Positions 2,981 through 37,383 of a stretch of DNA of 43,036 nt are shown here, one piece after another. Position 1 is the stretch's first letter, and the number at the start of each line of letters is the position of its first letter. The stretch comes from a virus, in IMG/VR virus record IMGVR_UViG_3300018476_000007, positions 1-43,036 of that record; one strand, written 5' to 3'. The notes beneath the pieces were generated by a model. The model was not told the DNA's origin and searched no databases. It worked only from the letters and a program-made list of their open reading frames with translations. Position numbers and translations under genes: made by a program.

Positions 2981-3388
2981 GTGATTACAATCACTCCGAA
3001 AGACGCACTCAAGGCAGAGACTCTTCCTCCGGGTTGGCAGAATTGTGAAGTGGAGAACCACTACACTAAGCCTGCTTCGGGAGATGGTTCTACTGTTCAT
3101 TATTACGAGATCACCGTGATTGATGGACAGTTTGCCGGAGTTCCATTGAACGAATTGACCATTAGCGAAAAGGCTATTGGTATGGGTAAGAACTTCTTCC
3201 TTGCTTGTGGTATGCCACAGTCCCTTTGGGATAAAGCAAAGAAGGGTGAAGCTGTCCAGTTTGATGAGAAGCTTCCTGTTGGTAAGAAGCTCAAGGTTAT
3301 GGTAAAGCCTGAGCCTTTCGGTGGTAGGATTCTTAATAAGGCATCGGACTTTATGCCTATGGAATCCGCGGGTTTCGTTAAGCCGTAA
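2981..3388 (+). CDS. DUF669-like protein, possible ssDNA-binding partner of the Sak4-like ATPase
   Basis: The pattern LPPGWQNCEV...HYYEITVIDGQFAGVPL resembles DUF669-type phage proteins. It has a GTG start (the first in-frame ATG is codon 67) and is preceded by an SD-less CA-rich leader. Confidence 0.5.
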   Translation: MITITPKDALKAETLPPGWQNCEVENHYTKPASGDGSTVHYYEITVIDGQFAGVPLNELTISEKAIGMGKNFFLACGMPQSLWDKAKKGEAVQFDEKLPVGKKLKVMVKPEPFGGRILNKASDFMPMESAGFVKP

Positions 3389-3523
3389 TACTAATTGCTG
3401 TCCAGACTTGTTGAGGAATGAGATTGATTCTTCCGATAATTACTGGTCCCCCAACTGGTAGATTAAAGGTAGTTGTATTGAGTTCCAAGATCGCCAGCAT
3501 GCATAAGGTTCTGGGAGAATTCT

Positions 3524-7377: not shown

Positions 7378-7556
7378 ACATCAAATGTCCGAAGTGTCAG
7401 CAAGAAGATACCAATATGTTCGATACATTTGGTCATCGAAGAGAACAAGTAAGTGTATACTGCCGCGTATGTGGGCATGATTTTATTCACATATTTAAAG
7501 AGATTCCTAGGGAATCCTTGATTAAGGTAGTACCTAAAGTAAATCAGTGGACCTAG
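7374..7556 (+). CDS. Zinc-ribbon protein (60 aa)
   Basis: CPKCQ...CRVCGH. Confidence 0.6.
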   Translation: MNIKCPKCQQEDTNMFDTFGHRREQVSVYCRVCGHDFIHIFKEIPRESLIKVVPKVNQWT

Positions 7557-7579
7557 GAAACTAGAGAATTGAGGGGCAA

Positions 7580-7840
7580 ATGAAAGTACTTAATCTCCAG
7601 GCAAAGCCGATTGAAGTTCAAGCAATCAAGTGGGAGAACAATGAAGTAGAGGTCAGAGAGTTTGTTAAAGATGATAAAAGTCTTAGGTTCATGGACAATG
7701 GACTTCATCTCTGGAACGAAGAAGAACAGTCTTGGTTAGTTGTTCAGCCTCTTCATTACATTGTTAAGGGACTTAAAGGAGAATTGACTAGTGAATCTCC
7801 TGAAATGCTAGAAAGGAAATTTACTATCTCCGAGGAGTAA
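7580..7840 (+). CDS. Hypothetical protein (86 aa)
   Basis: GAGGGG SD 5 nt upstream. Confidence 0.7.
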   Translation: MKVLNLQAKPIEVQAIKWENNEVEVREFVKDDKSLRFMDNGLHLWNEEEQSWLVVQPLHYIVKGLKGELTSESPEMLERKFTISEE

Positions 7841-9412: not shown

Positions 9413-11769
9413 CGCATCTTAATAGATGGCATTTTGTATCCACTATTAGGATTTTTAAACATTCCCGATCCTGATTTTCCACTGGAAGATTTAGTCTTAC
9501 CGTAGCTTTGAATACCTATTCCGAATGCACCTGGAAGAATAACAGGTATTAGTTTAGGATCTTCTTGAGCTAGTTCAGTTAGATCCTGTATAATTAGTGG
9601 AATAACCCTATCTTTAGCCGCCTGACTCCACGTAAACTTCTCTCCTAAAACATTCTTCTCTGCCATCCAATCAACTATCAATCCTGCCAATGGAGATAGT
9701 TTATTCCTGCCAAATCTTTCCGCAGTAGTTTTCCTATTCCTATCCTCTACCTTATCCCCAGTATTAACCTGACCAGTAGCTAATTGAGTCGCTACTCTAG
9801 CATACTGCTGAAACCCACCTGTCATATCCAGCCTAGTATTACCAAACTTAAGCTTACCAAAATCTGTAGATCTTGGATCAAGCGTTCCTTCTGCACCAGA
9901 CAATTCAGAGATTGTAGCAGACCCTCCTAACAATCCTCCAACCGCTGCCATATCTCTCCAAGCACGCTTTCTAAGTTGCTTAGCTAATGCAGAATCAACT
10001 CCCTTTTCCAGCATTCGGGGATCTGCAAAAGCCCTTCTAACCATATTAACTCTGGATGCCATTAGCTTAGGAGAGAAGAGAACATCGTTTAGAATCTCTG
10101 CATTCTTCTCCAATTTCCCTAGATGTCCACGCCCAGTAGCATCATTAATATATCGAGCGATCGCCCGCGCATTTTCATTAACTTTACCATCCTTACCTAT
10201 AAGCTCAACTCCTGCCTTCTGAGCTTTCTCTACCATATTATCAAATAGATCACTTCTAAGTTTATTACCGAATGCCATATAGGCTCTATTAGATGCTCGG
10301 ATAGGACTGAATCCGGCAAGTTTGATTCCTTCTACTAGAGTATCCTTGCTAATACTCTCCTCAACATTTTTAATATTCTTACCTAGTTCAGAGAATTCTA
10401 TTCCTGCTTCCTCTGCCATTTTGAAATTAGGTTTAGTGAGAACTTGATTTTGAAGAGTTTCAAAGTTCTCTTCTTTAAGTGCAGACTTCATCATAGGTAC
10501 CATAGATTTCCAGAATTCTTTTCTGGTTATATTAGTGATACCTTGTCTAAAGGGGAATGATAAGTCAAGACCTGTCTGCAATTGTCTAGCTTCAGCAGCA
10601 GCTTTCCTAATAGGATTCTTCATCCATGATTGAAGTTGAGTCAGTTCAGGTTTAGTTTCAAAGTCTCCTAATTTAACTTCGGGAGCGGCAGTTTGTAAAT
10701 CTACTTGTGGTGCTTGAGTATCAGCAGCGGTAGATACAGTAGGAGTTGTTGGAGTAGGAGGAACATCTACAGTAGGAATCTTAGGAATACCAAAATCAAA
10801 AGTATGGAGCTTAGGAACTTTAATCTTTCCATCCTCAGTTTGTCCACTGAGGAATGATTTAAGACCTTCTCTTACTTTCATTCCATGTTCTTGCAGTTCT
10901 TTCTCTTCTAATCCTGTATGATCCGTAAGCCATTTTACATATTTATCGTGTTGGGCACTCTTCTTAGGACGGGCTATAATATATAATGCCTTATCAAAAT
11001 CATTTTCAAATTCAGGAACGAATTCTCTAGTACCGTAACCATATCTAGGCTTAGCCCCTGCTAATTCCTTAGGAAGAAGTATCTTAGGTTCTGCTGGAAC
11101 TTTACTACTTACTTCAGCTACTACTTCAGCAGCTTTCTCGGCAGCTTTAGCAGGAATCTTAGTCTCAGAAGCTTGTGCAACTGCTTCAGATACTTCCTTA
11201 ATAGCCTTCTCTTTAGGAGTAGCCTTACTAAATTTACTATAATCTATCTTACCTAGAACTTTATTAGCAATACCCCCAGTAGCTCCACTTATAGTTGCTC
11301 CTAATGCAATTTCTTTTCCTTCTTCAAGATTAGGTATATGTAATCCTTTTTCAGTTTGTTGTCTTAACGCTGTTGAACCACCACCTAACAATGCACTCTT
11401 ACCTACTACATTAAGAAGTTTACCTGCACCAGAAAAAGGAATAGCTCCAATAGCCGCAGCCCCACCTATATTAGGTAAACTAAAATCCTCTCCTCCTATA
11501 AGTTGTGCTCCTCCTTCTGTTAAAGCATTTACTCCAGCACCTATAAATCCGCCTGGCGCTAGTCCTCCAATACCTCTAAGTGCCATAGCACCTATAGCGC
11601 GAGGATTATATCCTCCTATAGTCCAAGGAGTACTAGATTCAGTAGGCGTTCTGAATCCTTTATATTCTTCAGGAGGAAGATTAACAGGCGGAGGAGTATT
11701 AATAAGAGGAGCAGAAGGAGGAACAGGAGAAGAATCTCTGCGGAATTGACTATAATCAATTTGACCCAT
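9409..11769 (-). CDS. Large virion/ejection-type protein (786 aa)
   Basis: It is the last of three large genes at the distal end of the structural operon. The N-terminus is Gly/Ala-rich and hydrophobic (GAMALRGIGGLAPGGFIGAGVNAL...GGAAAIGAIPFSGAG). The functional class is inferred from position and composition only. Confidence 0.45.
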   Translation of the reverse strand: MGQIDYSQFRRDSSPVPPSAPLINTPPPVNLPPEEYKGFRTPTESSTPWTIGGYNPRAIGAMALRGIGGLAPGGFIGAGVNALTEGGAQLIGGEDFSLPNIGGAAAIGAIPFSGAGKLLNVVGKSALLGGGSTALRQQTEKGLHIPNLEEGKEIALGATISGATGGIANKVLGKIDYSKFSKATPKEKAIKEVSEAVAQASETKIPAKAAEKAAEVVAEVSSKVPAEPKILLPKELAGAKPRYGYGTREFVPEFENDFDKALYIIARPKKSAQHDKYVKWLTDHTGLEEKELQEHGMKVREGLKSFLSGQTEDGKIKVPKLHTFDFGIPKIPTVDVPPTPTTPTVSTAADTQAPQVDLQTAAPEVKLGDFETKPELTQLQSWMKNPIRKAAAEARQLQTGLDLSFPFRQGITNITRKEFWKSMVPMMKSALKEENFETLQNQVLTKPNFKMAEEAGIEFSELGKNIKNVEESISKDTLVEGIKLAGFSPIRASNRAYMAFGNKLRSDLFDNMVEKAQKAGVELIGKDGKVNENARAIARYINDATGRGHLGKLEKNAEILNDVLFSPKLMASRVNMVRRAFADPRMLEKGVDSALAKQLRKRAWRDMAAVGGLLGGSATISELSGAEGTLDPRSTDFGKLKFGNTRLDMTGGFQQYARVATQLATGQVNTGDKVEDRNRKTTAERFGRNKLSPLAGLIVDWMAEKNVLGEKFTWSQAAKDRVIPLIIQDLTELAQEDPKLIPVILPGAFGIGIQSYGKTKSSSGKSGSGMFKNPNSGYKMPSIKMR

Positions 11770-31890: not shown

Positions 31891-32126
31891 TTCTTTTCCA
31901 TACCTAGATAATCTTTAAGAGTAACTCTAGTTCCATCTTCGAGTACCCTAATAAACTTAGCTCCGGTAGTTCCAGATCCATCTGTTAAAGTTAGATCGAG
32001 GAATGATTCCCCATCATCTGACACTTTTACCGATCCATTTGACGTAACCATGCAAGCTCTCGCAGGTAGAGCATATAGCATGTTACGAATCAGTTCGTAT
32101 GTAACTCCTACCGATAGTAGAGTCAT
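31887..32126 (-). CDS. Hypothetical protein (79 aa)
   Basis: Four-nt overlaps at both ends: GTGA (TerL GTG start over this gene's TGA stop) and ATGA (this gene's ATG over the upstream gene's stop). Confidence 0.65.
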   Translation of the reverse strand: MTLLSVGVTYELIRNMLYALPARACMVTSNGSVKVSDDGESFLDLTLTDGSGTTGAKFIRVLEDGTRVTLKDYLGMEKK

Positions 32127-32269
32127 GGCAGTGAAAAAGGAGGTATAAGAAATGCTAGCGTTACCAACGCCAATCCGAGCGCCGTCATGTTTATTTTCCC
32201 GGTGGCTATGCTAAATGCACTGAGAATAAAACAAGCCAATGCGAGAACGAGTAGAATTAATCTAATCAT
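32123..32269 (-). CDS. Small membrane protein (48 aa, two predicted TM segments), below the track cutoff
   Basis: MIRLILLVLALACFILSAFSIATGKINMTALGLALVTLAFLIPPFSLP. Its stop overlaps the next ATG (ATGA). Confidence 0.5.
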   Translation of the reverse strand: MIRLILLVLALACFILSAFSIATGKINMTALGLALVTLAFLIPPFSLP

Positions 32270-32366
32270 TTCTCTTCTCGTTAAATTGTAAATGGGAATG
32301 AAGTTCTAGAAGAGGATTGTCAATCGACAGACTATTAAACGAACCTAAGATCATGATTAAATCAAA

Positions 32367-32867
32367 TCAAGCATCAATCACGTCGTAATCCTTCTCTACC
32401 TTCTGCGTCGGACTATATAAATGTAAATGCACTGTAGGCTTATCCGATCCGTTCTTATTATCTGTACTAAGTTTCTCTATTACTTGACTCAATCCAGTCA
32501 TGATGGCTATCTTATCCCGTTCCTTCTCTACCATATTAGGATCGAGAAGATTCAAGGTATCCATCAATTTAGTAATCGCCATGTCTTGGATGTTATTCCG
32601 CTTACTGAGAATACTAATCCTCGTATCCTCACTAACATCCTCACCCTTAGCATACTGTGCCGCATTAGTCTTACCAATACCATTAATCTCAGCAGATCTC
32701 CTTGCCGTAGATTCAATGGTATCAATAGCAGCTATCTCTTTTCTAAGTTCACTAATCTCAGGCCGATCAGTCTTACCCGTATTAGGTGTGATGACAATAC
32801 CTTTGTCTTCCGTTTCATCAACGGGCCTAATCTCAATTAGTTCAGTATCATCTAGGAATATATTCAT
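32367..32867 (-). CDS. First gene of the - arm (166 aa); small-terminase candidate by position only
   Basis: Lies upstream of terL and has a suitable size. No motif recognised. Confidence 0.35.
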   Translation of the reverse strand: MNIFLDDTELIEIRPVDETEDKGIVITPNTGKTDRPEISELRKEIAAIDTIESTARRSAEINGIGKTNAAQYAKGEDVSEDTRISILSKRNNIQDMAITKLMDTLNLLDPNMVEKERDKIAIMTGLSQVIEKLSTDNKNGSDKPTVHLHLYSPTQKVEKDYDVIDA

Positions 32868-33022
32868 AGTAGTTTTTAAGGACTAGAATCAGTTCCCTAT
32901 AATAAGATCTTCTAAGTAGAAAATCAAATTGTTCACACGTTAATTGACCAAAGAACTCGCCCACTTCTCTAACACTATAATATTAATCTTCCACCCTTAA
33001 GACCTACACCTCGACTAAAGAA

Positions 33023-33051
33023 AGTATAACACAGTCCGAACCGTTTGTCAA
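33023..33051 (-). promoter_or_regulatory. sigma70-type promoter facing the - arm (TTGACA-N17-TATACT with an extended TGT)
   Basis: The reverse complement of 33021-33055 reads ccggTTGACAaacggttcggactgtgtTATACTtt. It lies about 150 nt upstream of the ATG at 32867. Confidence 0.6.
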
Positions 33052-33118
33052 CCGGCCCAAATTTCGACCAATTCGATGCACTCAGTTCTCTAATTTTTAA
33101 AATTCCCTAAATTTTTTT

Positions 33119-33153
33119 ATTAGGTACTTATCCTAAAATCATTAGGTACTTAT
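33119..33153. repeat. 13-bp direct repeat ATTAGGTACTTAT x2 (period 22 bp) next to an A/T tract
   Basis: Copies at 33119-33131 and 33141-33153. Preceded by taatttttaaaattccctaaattttttt. Confidence 0.8.
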
Positions 33154-33191
33154 ATTTTTAGGACACTTAAGCTTGGGGTTAGTTTCACCTC

Positions 33192-33207
33192 CGCAAATAT
33201 TGTGCCA
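33192..33207 (-). promoter_or_regulatory. sigma54-type -24/-12 element facing left: TGGCACAATATTTGCG
   Basis: Exact TGGCAC-N5-TTGC with GG-N10-GC spacing on the - strand. Confidence 0.45.
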
Positions 33208-33237
33208 TGTAAAATTTCTGTAAAGGGCATATGGGGG

Positions 33238-33507
33238 TGGCATTATTATTGCATTAGCATGATTCATGCCAGATAATCGTGTAAGTATTATACAGCGCAT
33301 AAATCATGCCATATAAAAACCGTGTAAAAAATACAGGTATGATCCTTGCATTAGCATAGTTCGTGCCATAATATTGGTATGATCTATGCCGTATAAGAAT
33401 ACTGATTAAAGTCTTGGCATGTTCTATGTGGGATTAGATTAGTTGTAAGCTTTACAAGAATTGTAAGAGTTACAAGTAAGATTTACAAATATGCATAATT
33501 CGTGCCA
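33238..33507. repeat. Array of 16-nt TGGCAYGnnnnWTGC motifs in both orientations
   Basis: Minus-strand copies: 33256-33271 TGGCATGAATCATGCT; 33296-33311 TGGCATGATTTATGCG; 33353-33368 TGGCACGAACTATGCT; 33492-33507 TGGCACGAATTATGCA. Plus-strand copies: 33238-33253 TGGCATTATTATTGCA; 33335-33350 AGGTATGATCCTTGCA; 33375-33390 TGGTATGATCTATGCC; 33415-33430 TGGCATGTTCTATGTG. Further copies lie at 33624-33639 and 34483-34498. Confidence 0.85.
33443..33476. repeat. Two tandem 16-bp near-palindromes TTGTAAGnnTTACAAG (period 18 bp); operator-like
   Basis: ttgtaagctttacaag at 33443-33458 and ttgtaagagttacaag at 33461-33476. TTGTAA and TTACAA are reverse complements of each other. Confidence 0.75.
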
Positions 33508-33689
33508 TATCATATTCTTAGATTGTTAGACTTTCTTCTAGTATTCTCAGTATTCTTAGAAGGATCATAGTAGGGCATATAACCTAACTCCTTTAGAATC
33601 AACAACTTACGAGATTTATAAGTTGGCATATAGTATGTATTAGTATAGGATTGCGTAGCTTACCTGCTACCAGGGAGCCAAACCTAATT

Positions 33690-33705
33690 TGGCACGGCGG
33701 TTGCT
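33690..33705 (+). promoter_or_regulatory. Canonical sigma54-type -24/-12 element facing right: TGGCACGGCGGTTGCT
   Basis: Matches TGGCACG-N4-TTGCW exactly. The predicted start is near 33716, at the 5' edge of the hairpin-dense segment. Confidence 0.5.
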
Positions 33706-33715
33706 ATAGTATAGG

Positions 33716-34280
33716 CTACGGGAGGAATGAAACGATAGAGTAAAAACTACACGATTCGAGGTCACGTTTAATGAGTGTATGACCTTGTATCCACAGCGTT
33801 TCGGCGCAGGCCACGATTTACTCGTGTGTTAGTGAGATACTAAATAGACTCTGGCGTTCAACATCCGCGCATATGATTATGCGACAGGTTGCGAGGTAGA
33901 TAATTCTACAGAATCTCAAAGCCGTGCAAAATCTGAAAATGCTTTCGAGCATAATGGTAAGCGGATGATATCAATAGGATGGTTCTTACAAAATCATCCG
34001 AGTGCCAAGGGGGAGTTAGTCTCCCATCCTATACATGCACGGCGATGCAGAAACAGTATGCAAGATAACACTGCTATAGCTGATAAGGAATTAGGGTGGA
34101 AGTAGTGATTAGGCGAAAGCTTATAACTCTCAATACACTATAAATACAAAAGATTTGACAGAGCCTAAATTGTGCGGGCAAGAGTGAGCGCATTAGGTTC
34201 TATCAAATATCATTCTAATCGAATTATGCTTCTCACCATTGAGAGGGATATTCGATAAGGGCTAAGCGATTAATTTCCTT
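33716..34280 (+). ncRNA. Candidate large structured RNA or structured leader (unclassified)
   Basis: No ORF of 60 aa or more. Hairpins whose loops are special only on the + strand: AUGCU-UUCG-AGCAU at 33939-33952 and UAGGC-GAAA-GCUUA at 34110-34123. Other hairpins: CGCAUA-UGAU-UAUGCG at 33868-33883; GUAGA/UCUAC at 33896-33909; GGGAG/CUCCC at 34011-34025. An 8-bp stem pairs 33962-33969 with 33993-34000. Its loop UAGGAUGG (33975-33982) is complementary to CCAUCCUA (34024-34031). Boundaries are approximate. Confidence 0.35.
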
Positions 34281-34296
34281 ATAAGGAGTTAATCCC

Positions 34297-34479
34297 ATGA
34301 AAGAATACAGAGTTAACATTGAGTTCGATACGATGAATGATAATGCTGCACTTCGTTCTATGATGTTGATTGTAAACGCAACATCAGTGCCGCATGCGAC
34401 AATCTGCGCTGAAAGACTTGTTAGAAGTATTCTCACTGTTTGGCCTGAGATTAAGTATCTCAGTGCTTCTCAGCGTTAA
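34297..34479 (+). CDS. First ORF of the + arm (60 aa)
   Basis: AAGGAG SD 9 nt upstream. No motif recognised. Confidence 0.6.
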   Translation: MKEYRVNIEFDTMNDNAALRSMMLIVNATSVPHATICAERLVRSILTVWPEIKYLSASQR

Positions 34480-34559
34480 TATTGGCATAGGCGTTGAGTT
34501 TGACCTCATTCCCCCGTCACTGACCAACCAAAAAATCGCTAGCCTTTGTCGAATATCCC

Positions 34560-34588
34560 TTGACATGGGGTATTCATTGTGATACAAT
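34560..34588 (+). promoter_or_regulatory. Consensus sigma70 promoter TTGACA-N17-TACAAT with an extended -10 (TGA)
   Basis: ccctTTGACAtggggtattcattgtgaTACAATc, about 60 nt upstream of the ATG at 34650. Confidence 0.7.
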
Positions 34589-34649
34589 CTTTTCATCGGG
34601 TTAGGAATTCACCGAGCCGATAAACTGACTGTAAAATGAGGGATACGAT

Positions 34650-35237
34650 ATGACGACTAAGATGCGACGTTTGGTTGACAAGCAGTTGGCGGTTGAGGAA
34701 ACTTCGGGCGATGCGAACTTTGTAAAGGATACGCCTTTCGGTTCGATTCGTCGTGGCACCTTCTCTATTACCGTATCGGACGAGAATAAGAAGGAACTTT
34801 ACAGCAATAAGGCTGAAGCTTATGAGTTTGATGTTGTAAACTCTTTGGCTAATGTCCTTCGGCATGCTGGCGCTAAGTTGCCGGATGCTGCAATTGGTGG
34901 ATTGGGTAAAGTTCTTACCGCTGACAATCCTGCCGACCAGACTACGATTAATGAGGCAACTCAGGAAATCGTTAAGACTTATAATAACAAGCTGAAGGCT
35001 GACGCTAAGTCGTCTGCTTATCAGGCTCTTGTTAATAAGTATAAGCCTCTTGAGGGTGAGAAGAAGGAATCGGCACAGGCTCGACTTGTTGCTAATTTCA
35101 TCAAGCTTGCTGGTGTTAGCAAGGAGACTGCTATTACTCAGCTTAAGGCTGCAATGGCTCTTCCTGCGGAGTATACGGTTGCTGATTTTGATAGCACACC
35201 GCTCCGTCGGACTAAGGGGGATGATAGCGAGGAATAA
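34650..35237 (+). CDS. Early protein (195 aa), unknown function, atypical codon usage
   Basis: GAGGGA SD. Ala/Lys-rich with an acidic tail (GDDSEE). It uses CGN Arg, GCT Ala and CTT Leu codons, unlike the AGA/AGG/ATA-rich remainder of the genome. The antisense 220-aa ORF is Leu/Ser/Arg-rich and is judged spurious. Confidence 0.75.
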   Translation: MTTKMRRLVDKQLAVEETSGDANFVKDTPFGSIRRGTFSITVSDENKKELYSNKAEAYEFDVVNSLANVLRHAGAKLPDAAIGGLGKVLTADNPADQTTINEATQEIVKTYNNKLKADAKSSAYQALVNKYKPLEGEKKESAQARLVANFIKLAGVSKETAITQLKAAMALPAEYTVADFDSTPLRRTKGDDSEE

Positions 35238-35296
35238 TATTCTAAGGATTATCAACTGGTATAGGCCAGTATAAACAGGTCTTAAGCCTATAGCGT

Positions 35297-35339
35297 TTAG
35301 TTGGCTGGCTAGTTCGTATGTAATTAGTCAGTCAACTAA
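35297..35339 (+). other. Long intergenic RNA hairpin (11 bp + 6 bp, three G.U pairs valid only on the + strand)
   Basis: UUAGUUGGCUG-g-CUAGUU-cguaugu-AAUUAG-u-CAGUCAACUAA. It ends 46 nt before the ATG at 35386. Confidence 0.5.
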
Positions 35340-35385
35340 GGTGACTTTCAATCAAGAAGGTCCAATCCCTTATAATGGGAGGTAT

Positions 35386-35562
35386 ATGAAGTCTCTATTC
35401 CTCATTCAGCACGCACAGAATGGATACGTTCATTGCGTATTCAGCAATCTTCGTGCTGCCCAACATTTCCTCGACAGACTCAATAGCGTTAGTTCTACAC
35501 CTAACGTCTATCAGATTGTCGAGCGCTACCTTTACGATAACATTAGTGAGATTGGGGGCTAG
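35386..35562 (+). CDS. Small early protein (58 aa; the track lists a longer GTG start at 35341)
   Basis: GGGAGG SD 4 nt before the ATG at 35386. The GTG at 35341 directly abuts the upstream hairpin. Confidence 0.6.
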   Translation: MKSLFLIQHAQNGYVHCVFSNLRAAQHFLDRLNSVSSTPNVYQIVERYLYDNISEIGG

Positions 35563-36913: not shown

Positions 36914-37093
36914 ATGGAACTATCAATGAATATCGTCAAGGTCGAAAAGTTCCCCAATCTATACGATGTTATGGAAGAGGGATTCAGTATTTTTCGAGGG
37001 ACTTATACTAACTGCCTAGTAGTAGTTGGTGGATTAACTCTCTACCCCGATAAGAAGATTGATGAAATCTTCAAGATGACTGAGACAGAGTAA
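36914..37093 (+). CDS. Small early protein (59 aa), below the track cutoff
   Basis: AGGAGG SD 8 nt upstream. Product MELSMNIVKVEKFPNLYDVMEEGFSIFRGTYTNCLVVVGGLTLYPDKKIDEIFKMTETE. TAATG overlap with the next gene. Confidence 0.6.
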   Translation: MELSMNIVKVEKFPNLYDVMEEGFSIFRGTYTNCLVVVGGLTLYPDKKIDEIFKMTETE

Positions 37094-37383
37094 TGCAAGA
37101 ATTTACTCCAAGAGAAAAGAAGCATCTTTACTTTGCAATTGCCAAGGTAATGAGCGTATTGAAACATCTGGATACGTTTACTCTTGAAGAACTCGAGAAT
37201 CACATCCGTAAGATAGACCAAATGGATGTGAACCATGTAGTTAAGGAACTACTAGCACTTGGAGTTCTTGAGAAAGATGAGACTGACCTTTATAGTTGGG
37301 TCGGAACAGACCATCTAGTTCGGGAAGTAAGTGTAACGGAAGTAAACATAGTAAAGAAGAAGCTCCTTAATGAGGAGAATTAA
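37093..37383 (+). CDS. Winged-helix-like DNA-binding protein (96 aa)
   Basis: LEELENHIRKIDQMDVNHVVKELLALGVLEKDETDLYSW. Confidence 0.55.
   Translation: MQEFTPREKKHLYFAIAKVMSVLKHLDTFTLEELENHIRKIDQMDVNHVVKELLALGVLEKDETDLYSWVGTDHLVREVSVTEVNIVKKKLLNEEN

Follow-up and report, generated by a model that had tools for sequence, protein, structure and literature searches.

A cluster of sigma54-like -24/-12 motifs between the late and early gene arms of a phage genome from IMG/VR

Composition of the motif array

The IMG/VR virus record IMGVR_UViG_3300018476_000007 contains a complete, circular phage genome of ~42.9 kb with a GC content of 39%, and an independent assembly of the same genome comes from SRR6958482. 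We analysed the record over its full length of 43,036 nt (the window), the ends of which carry a 123-bp repeat. The genes form two arms, a late arm on the minus strand (32867 down to 9409) and an early/replication arm on the plus strand (34297 through the window end to 9412), separated by a noncoding region of 1.43 kb (32868-34296). The region contains, separated by 326 nt from the first late gene downstream, an array of short bipartite motifs resembling the -24/-12 elements of promoters recognized by sigma54 (RpoN); its composition, conservation and possible function are described here.

We searched the window with the pattern TGGCAYRNNNNWTGC, allowing at most one mismatch, and used 100 dinucleotide shuffles as controls. 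The pattern matched 16 times in the 43,036 bp as compared to 3.30 ± 1.78 times in the shuffles (maximum 8), and 11 of the 16 matches fall in 33193-33704, that is, in 1.2% of the genome. The strict form TGGCAY-N5-TTGC occurs three times with 0.11 matches expected, and all three are located in the array (33193 on the minus strand, 33238 and 33690 on the plus strand). An earlier note on this DNA had claimed that the cluster cannot be random, and these numbers bear it out. The scan of the genome with a sigma54 weight matrix, a rough one of our own, gave the same picture, with seven of the eight sites that score at least 14 bits lying in the array; the shuffled controls were run with the TGGCAYRNNNNWTGC pattern.

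Nine of the 11 pattern copies keep the exact GG-N10-GC spacing, the number that had been given before, and the two others, at 33415 and 33624, end in GT instead of GC. Six copies point rightward and five leftward, and the four leftward copies of the form TGGCA(C/T)GA...ATGC that the note had listed were found at 33271, 33311, 33368 and 33507. A twelfth copy is AGGTATGATCCTTGC (33335-33349, plus strand), which has two mismatches with the GG-N10-GC core intact; the one counted in the note could also be 34483-34497 (TGGCATAGGCGTTGA), where the GC is missing. The two canonical copies are present as described, TGGCACAATATTTGC(G) from 33207 to 33193 on the minus strand and TGGCACGGCGGTTGC(T) from 33690 to 33704 on the plus strand. 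They point outward, are ~480 bp apart, and are referred to as P_L and P_R. The array comprises the following elements, together with a conserved box next to P_L:

33193-33207, minus strand: P_L, outward -24/-12 element facing the late arm, TGGCACAATATTTGC followed by G; predicted start ~33181
33226-33237: conserved box upstream of P_L, GGCATATGGGGG (CCCCCATATGCC on the late-sense strand)
33238-33271: face-to-face pair 1, TGGCATTATTATTGC-ATTA-GCATGATTCATGCCA (15 + 4 + 15 nt)
33297-33311, minus strand: single leftward copy TGGCATGATTTATGC, found by the pattern search
33335-33368: face-to-face pair 2, AGGTATGATCCTTGC-ATTA-GCATAGTTCGTGCCA (15 + 4 + 15 nt)
33375-33389, plus strand: copy TGGTATGATCTATGC, pointing rightward, with a gap of 6 nt to the leftward copy at 33354-33368
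33415-33429, plus strand: rightward copy TGGCATGTTCTATGT, weak or degenerate with GT at -12
33493-33507, minus strand: leftward copy TGGCACGAATTATGC, 18.2 bits with our own matrix
33624-33638, plus strand: rightward copy TGGCATATAGTATGT, degenerate with GT at -12
33690-33704, plus strand: P_R, outward element facing the early arm, TGGCACGGCGGTTGC followed by TATAGTATAG; predicted start ~33716

The copies have a bipartite information profile, to which TGGCAYR and WTGC contribute but the spacer and the flanks do not. Each site is asymmetric, with TGGCA at one end and TGC at the other, and the TGC is not followed by a CCA that would mirror the TG of TGGCA. Apart from the two face-to-face pairs there is a second type of pair, in which 6-7 nt separate the TGG ends (33354-33389), and a similar divergent pairing is found in a relative, L020 (contigs and loci other than the window carry L numbers).

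Conservation in relatives and in other phages

Relatives were gathered via TerL, the 166-amino-acid first late protein, the 195-amino-acid first early protein, and DNA patterns, and the identity of their TerL to that of the window ranges from 91% down to ~35%. A TerL profile detected no relative in the GTDB genomes, and cultured phages showed no DNA similarity to 32000-35500.

Counterparts of P_L occupy the homologous position in L001, L002, L004, L020, L021, L026, L030, L031, L036, L039 and L045. All 11 aligned genomes share the T, G, G, C, A and the T, T, G, C, and the 5-nt spacer, which is AT-rich across the relatives and often a T-tract, varies. P_L of the relatives directly follows a CCCCCATA(T/C)xCC box, the CCCCCATA block of which is almost invariant in 10 of 11 relatives, and lies 130-170 nt upstream of the late sigma70 promoter. 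More distant relatives have a GGGTCCCAT box near P_L or in the interval between P_L and the late sigma70 promoter (L030 7700-7800, L007 1060-1090, L029 1300-1320, L036 1355-1365, L045 575-590), a form that is absent from the window.

P_R has counterparts in L002, L007, L011, L019 (degenerate), L020, L026, L029, L030, L036, L039 and L045. The alignment of 12 genomes shows an invariant TGGCA and TG, a nearly invariant C, and variable, mostly GC-rich spacers, and in the relatives the GC is followed by an AT-rich stretch resembling TATAGTATAG. In L007 and L011 ~35-40 nt lie between P_R and, downstream of it, a GAGG-type ribosome-binding site and the ATG with which the arm's first small open reading frame (ORF) begins, and L011 has a sigma70 promoter further downstream, in the same order as in the window. 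Two blocks one helical turn apart are fixed at constant positions and orientations before genes while the bases between and around them drift, which is the pattern to be expected of a -24/-12 promoter.

The interior copies are shared by the closest relatives, with seven in L020 and five to six in the genome that comprises L021 and L235. The right half of pair 2 together with its flank, TGGCACGAAYTATGCTAATGCAAGG, recurs nearly identically in L020, L029 and L030, and face-to-face units are also present in L020, L021, L029, L030 and L045.

We then scanned IMG/VR for the face-to-face arrangement TGGCAY-N5-WTGC-N4-GCAW-N5-RTGCCA and obtained matches in at least 119 contigs, the expectation by chance being ~1 match (an estimate from 36 bits and an assumed library of ~60 Gb). 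Similar pairs with gaps of 3-8 nt occur in at least 186 contigs. All counts and contexts of units in IMG/VR that are reported here hold among the matches listed. The loci with gaps of 3, 4, 5, 6, 7 and 8 nt number 11, 32, 28, 13, 13 and 4, respectively; gaps of 0-2 nt are lacking and gaps above 8 nt are few. Three face-to-face units with 7-nt gaps that are repeated every 47 nt form tandem arrays in L175, L181, L187, L191 and L204. A BLAST search of cultured phages with one unit returned chance-level matches only.

Bacterial sigma54 promoters reportedly follow the consensus YTGGCACGr-N3-TTGCW. The positions of 117 distinct units that the search pattern leaves free agree with this consensus. Position -27, which is not covered by the pattern, is T in 60% and C in 21% of the units, position -20 is G in 62% and A in 37%, position -15 is T in 88% even though the pattern permits A, and position -11 is A or T in 82%.

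The centre of the pairs has an AT content of 73% as compared to 54% overall. Halves agree at 2.74 of 7 free positions when they belong to the same unit and at 2.79 of 7 when they are taken from different units, so that sharing a unit does not make them more similar. This independent variation and the variable gap of 3-8 nt indicate that a pair consists of two independent sites of the monomer type and is neither an extended palindrome nor a hairpin nor the fixed-spacing operator of a dimer. A hairpin or cruciform was rejected also on the grounds that the spacers of the two halves are neither complementary nor alike beyond the motif. Likewise, an array of operators for a dimeric helix-turn-helix protein is disfavoured by the asymmetry of the sites, the independence of the halves and the range of gaps; the dimeric phage regulator that the earlier note had considered thus loses ground.

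The units are mostly located in large intergenic regions (median 825 nt), with the surrounding genes being divergent in 30, co-directional in 19 and convergent in 8 cases, and where TerL is within reach (56 loci) the unit is always upstream of it, at a distance of 0.3-4.8 kb. Unpaired copies at the unit loci face the start of a gene in 113 of 159 cases (p = 1e-7), a bias that is partly a consequence of their location in divergent regions.

The search of the GTDB genomes with the 22-nt unit pattern gave two matches, L047 and L048, the former of which is likely due to chance. L048 (CAZBOT010000039.1) belongs to a metagenome-assembled genome labelled Candidatus Saccharibacteria and has a motif array of its own at 7539-7788, which consists of five leftward and four rightward copies at a spacing of 25 nt, including one face-to-face pair, and a CTTTAGAATCAA box. 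No protein similarity between L048 and the phage family of the window is detectable. The contigs with paired units range from 30 to 68% in GC content, and the motif is unchanged across this range. A constant motif in unrelated phages of such different base composition argues for a universal host factor over a phage-specific protein, and sigma54 is the only factor known to us that has such a specificity.

Possible binding partners of the array

On balance, the array probably represents sites for the host sigma54 RNA polymerase that act as outward and bidirectional promoters. The analysis documents the statistics of the motif, its conservation with free spacers, its promoter-like placement and the independent variation of pair halves, whereas sigma54 as the binding partner, transcription starts at the sites, and the kind of activator are inferred. 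The host sigma54 holoenzyme would bind the copies in the central control region between the late and the early arm, with P_L directing transcription toward the late arm and P_R directing it into a structured noncoding leader, a 60-amino-acid ORF and the early arm. Further sigma54 sites would be provided by the interior copies, each pointing at one arm or the other. In the pairs the two elements would interdigitate over 34 bp, with one polymerase occupying the pair in either orientation. If transcription begins 12 nt past the GC, initiation would occur at unit position 27 for the rightward half and at position 8 for the leftward half, so that the predicted starts are ~19 bp apart and diverge without collision, making a pair a candidate compact bidirectional promoter with a shared AT-rich centre. 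The earlier note had described 33238-33271 and 33335-33368 as back-to-back units; both pairs exist and have an ATTA centre, and judged by their predicted starts they would be compact bidirectional units. Firing would require an enhancer-binding ATPase or a substitute, and none is recognisably encoded by the phage, so the array most likely couples transcription to a host activator. It would tie part of the phage's transcription to this activator (or to an unrecognised phage factor), in addition to constitutive sigma70 promoters. Comparative evidence supports host sigma54 promoters, an explanation already put forward in the note, for the outer copies and less directly for the others.

The layout can be compared with known systems. 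In the E. coli zraP/zraSR and hyc/hyp loci, a central enhancer and an IHF site are common to two divergent sigma54 promoters. Similarly, the array has the GG-N10-GC core within YTGGCACG-N4-TTGCW, outward promoters ~480 bp apart, and, between these, repeated sites and a box with the IHF consensus (see below). In contrast to bacterial sigma54 promoters, it resides on a lytic-type phage in which no enhancer-binding ATPase is recognisable, a further 9-10 promoter-like copies lie between its outer two, and strong sigma70 promoters serve the two target operons as well. We know of no bacterial sigma54 promoter with interdigitated face-to-face pairs. The clustering of promoters for the host polymerase where transcription of the arms begins is reminiscent of T7 A1/A2/A3 and lambda pL/pR. 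These promoters are, however, of the sigma70 type and fire without an activator ATPase, and unlike the array they are spaced for separate polymerases and form no mirror pairs.

Several observations weigh against a promoter function. First, no activator came to light, in agreement with the earlier note, which could not identify an activator ATPase either. Pfam and PHROGs scans of the ~70 ORFs of the window detected no Sigma54_activat/AAA+ enhancer-binding protein and no sigma54 DNA-binding domain, and none of the 3,304 ORFs located up to 5 kb from the units at ~120 loci has a GAFTGA or RpoN-box signature. TerL and the DNA polymerase of the window match proteins of cultured phages at no more than 24-29% identity, from which no host can be inferred, and near-consensus sigma70 promoters already serve both arms. 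Second, the interior copies deviate: T at -15 is replaced by A in most of them, and two have GT as their last bases. Moreover, holoenzyme cannot simultaneously occupy all of the copies that are 19-21 bp apart in the window or 25 bp apart in L048, and these copies have an iteron-like look. Third, conservation is incomplete. In L001 (290-400), L003 (1990-2170) and L019 (3710-3840) palindromic repeats of the unrelated TAAACATGGTTA type replace the interior copies, in L019 despite flanking genes that are 77-81% identical to those of the window, and P_L is absent from L003 and L019 as well. Judging by this replacement, the array looks like an exchangeable module of binding sites. Finally, other phages show a 12-fold enrichment of DnaA boxes in the 600 nt around units, a hint at an origin-like region, and the cultured phages Stenotrophomonas BUCT708 and Rhizobium RHph_I3_18, the terminases of which are related to that of one unit-bearing contig, contain no units.

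To our knowledge, sigma54 promoters are regarded as elements of cellular regulons that always require an AAA+ activator, and a search of the literature in full text returned no report of phage-borne arrays of sigma54 promoters. We tentatively raise the possibility that these phages, as a large and mostly uncultivated group of tailed phages, have co-opted the host sigma54 polymerase by means of a dedicated DNA module of face-to-face -24/-12 pairs and arrays and without an AAA+ enhancer-binding protein, be it by a novel activator or bypass factor, or in the form of a sigma54 sponge. If the sites bind sigma54 polymerase, the phage and the carriers of at least 186 contigs would couple their expression to a host activator of stress or nutrient responses, carry a novel activator, or titrate sigma54, and each of these three outcomes, if true, would be a new mode of transcriptional interplay between phage and host. 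A new activator or bypass factor would break the strict requirement of sigma54 for an AAA+ ATPase, and a sponge would disarm the stress and defence programmes of the host that are controlled by sigma54. The 34-bp bidirectional unit would also be a compact and portable genetic part.

The sponge taken by itself, a decoy for sigma54 that the earlier note had also suggested and that outlives its dimeric regulator, is in our estimation rather unlikely. Here, the sites would form stable closed complexes that are not meant to fire and that titrate the scarce sigma54; replication would multiply the sites to tens to thousands, shutting down the sigma54 stress responses of the host, and the bound complexes could in addition serve to insulate the arms from each other or be roadblocks between them. 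A decoy shares the sequence evidence for sigma54 binding with the promoters and accounts better for the missing activator in the window and near the ~120 loci. Dense, overlapping copies in both orientations suit capture over productive initiation, and the strong sigma70 promoters on both arms are also in line with it. E. coli datA, which titrates DnaA, would be a parallel, as dense sites for a scarce host DNA-binding factor are located on a replicating element, and the clusters of DnaA boxes beside units in some phages could be a parallel titration device; we know of no locus that titrates sigma54, and the likeness to datA is a possible one only. However, the outward orientation and the position of P_L and P_R are fixed across the family, P_R of L007 and L011 is at promoter distance from the start of a gene, and unpaired copies are oriented to genes. 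Many relatives, furthermore, have only two sites, which are few for a sponge, and the AT-rich TATAGTATAG after the GC of P_R looks selected for melting.

It is unlikely that the array is bound by a phage-encoded protein, i.e. a replication initiator or a two-headed regulator for which the copies would be an iteron-like origin or an operator field next to the AT-rich stretch 33060-33180, the likeness to sigma54 sites being coincidental or a competitive mimicry. Iteron origins such as lambda ori, P1 oriR and plasmid iterons likewise combine an AT-rich stretch with adjacent short repeats at intervals of about two helical turns, and the many copies at 19-25 bp, in both orientations, recall them. 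The exchange of the interior array for another repeat family in close relatives would be expected if a protein and its sites are swapped together. A candidate initiator might be the product of a 96-amino-acid winged-helix ORF (37093-37383), which matches Phage_rep_O (the DNA-binding domain of lambda O) only faintly and below threshold (E = 0.036). DnaA boxes form clusters of three to seven perfect boxes (TGTGGATAA) at a distance of a few hundred nt at most from the units of eight loci (L059, at 2735-2800, and L056, L069, L088, L119, L149, L154 and L164), suggesting that the control region of these phages doubles as an origin or a DnaA-binding field. The window, in contrast, has no DnaA boxes. 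Its array also differs from iteron origins in its mixed orientation (5 left/6 right), in a motif that is not specific to a lineage, in the lack of a linked initiator gene beyond the sub-threshold match, and in the promoter-like placement of the outer copies. A phage protein is further disfavoured by the fact that all informative positions agree with the sigma54 consensus, even those that the search had not imposed, and by the constancy of the motif over 30-68% GC and in a contig without shared proteins. Besides the terminase, no protein family is present at more than ~1/4 of the unit loci, and many members of the family have just two outward copies that are far apart.

Packaging repeats (pac/cos) bound by a small terminase subunit that is encoded just downstream, the last of the explanations in the note, are very improbable: the array does lie upstream of the 166-amino-acid late gene, with TerL following, and the units precede TerL in all 56 loci, but the motif equals the sigma54 consensus and occurs beside at least two unrelated proteins in the TerS position (the 166-amino-acid type here and a 'c2' type of ~146 amino acids elsewhere), and the 166-amino-acid protein of L019 is 77% identical without any copies being present, whereas L020, at 68% identity, has them.

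Further elements of the control region and the gene arms

Besides the motif copies, the control region and the adjoining parts of the arms contain the following features:

31890-30211, minus strand: TerL, late arm
32867-32367, minus strand: first late gene, encoding the 166-amino-acid protein in the TerS position; TerL is next
33023-33051, minus strand: late-arm sigma70 promoter, near-consensus with extended -10 (TTGACA-17-TGtgTTATACT), 11/12 matches, TG present
33060-33180: AT-rich stretch
33119-33131 and 33141-33153: ATTAGGTACTTAT (ATAAGTACCTAAT on the late strand), an exact direct repeat in two copies 22 nt apart
33441-33490: three palindromes of the TTGTAA-N3-TTACAA type, which lie within the array and form an operator-like family of repeats distinct from the motif copies
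33587-33610, plus strand: conserved 24-nt box ACTCCTTTAGAATCAACAACTTAC between P_L and P_R
33716-34296, plus strand: noncoding stretch of ~580 nt downstream of P_R
34560-34588, plus strand: early-arm sigma70 promoter, near-consensus with extended -10, ahead of the first conserved early gene
34650-35237, plus strand: first conserved early gene, encoding the 195-amino-acid protein, after the early sigma70 promoter

Positions 33597-33609 of the 24-nt box match perfectly what we take to be the IHF consensus, WATCAANNNNTTR. A near-identical box is present in L002, L029 and L030 (twice), and variants occur in L036 and in the unrelated contig L048, where the 3' part of the IHF consensus is lost. Palindromes similar to the TTGTAA-N3-TTACAA type are found in L019 (~3340-3395) and L020 (~9560-9680). 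The ATAAGTACCTAAT repeats lie, together with A-tracts, between P_L and the late sigma70 promoter and are kept in several relatives (L001 630-660, L019 4010-4045), with other two-copy repeats being present in L002 and L020.

The noncoding stretch downstream of P_R has a minimum free energy of -178.3 kcal/mol as compared to -140.7 ± 6.9 kcal/mol in shuffles (z = -5.45). Its sequence is not conserved in the relatives, save for a 38-nt segment shared with L020, and Rfam contains no family for it or for the repeats. The stretch is thus predicted to be highly structured and probably represents a structured leader or an RNA specific to the lineage.

The late sigma70 promoter is kept in L001-L004, L009, L013, L019 and L020, and the early one has an equivalent in L011. 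Many genes of the window have GGAG-type ribosome-binding sites. Pfam and PHROGs scans of the ~70 ORFs revealed no lysis or host-indicating domains, and the early arm encodes, among others, an SNF2 helicase, a UDG-PolA polymerase and a DUF3987 primase.

The 195-amino-acid early protein is conserved throughout the family (34 clusters). We dropped it as a candidate for the binder or activator of the motif, as L019, which lacks copies, encodes it at 81% identity. It has no Pfam or PHROG family, and a Foldseek search of the PDB with its confident AlphaFold2 model (predicted local distance difference test score of 75), which consists of a three-stranded sheet and helices, gave no match below E = 0.6. 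Beginning 18 nt past the end of its ORF, a Pistol self-cleaving ribozyme (RF02679) is located at 35255-35306 on the plus strand and scores 41.3 bits, above the gathering score of 34.5.

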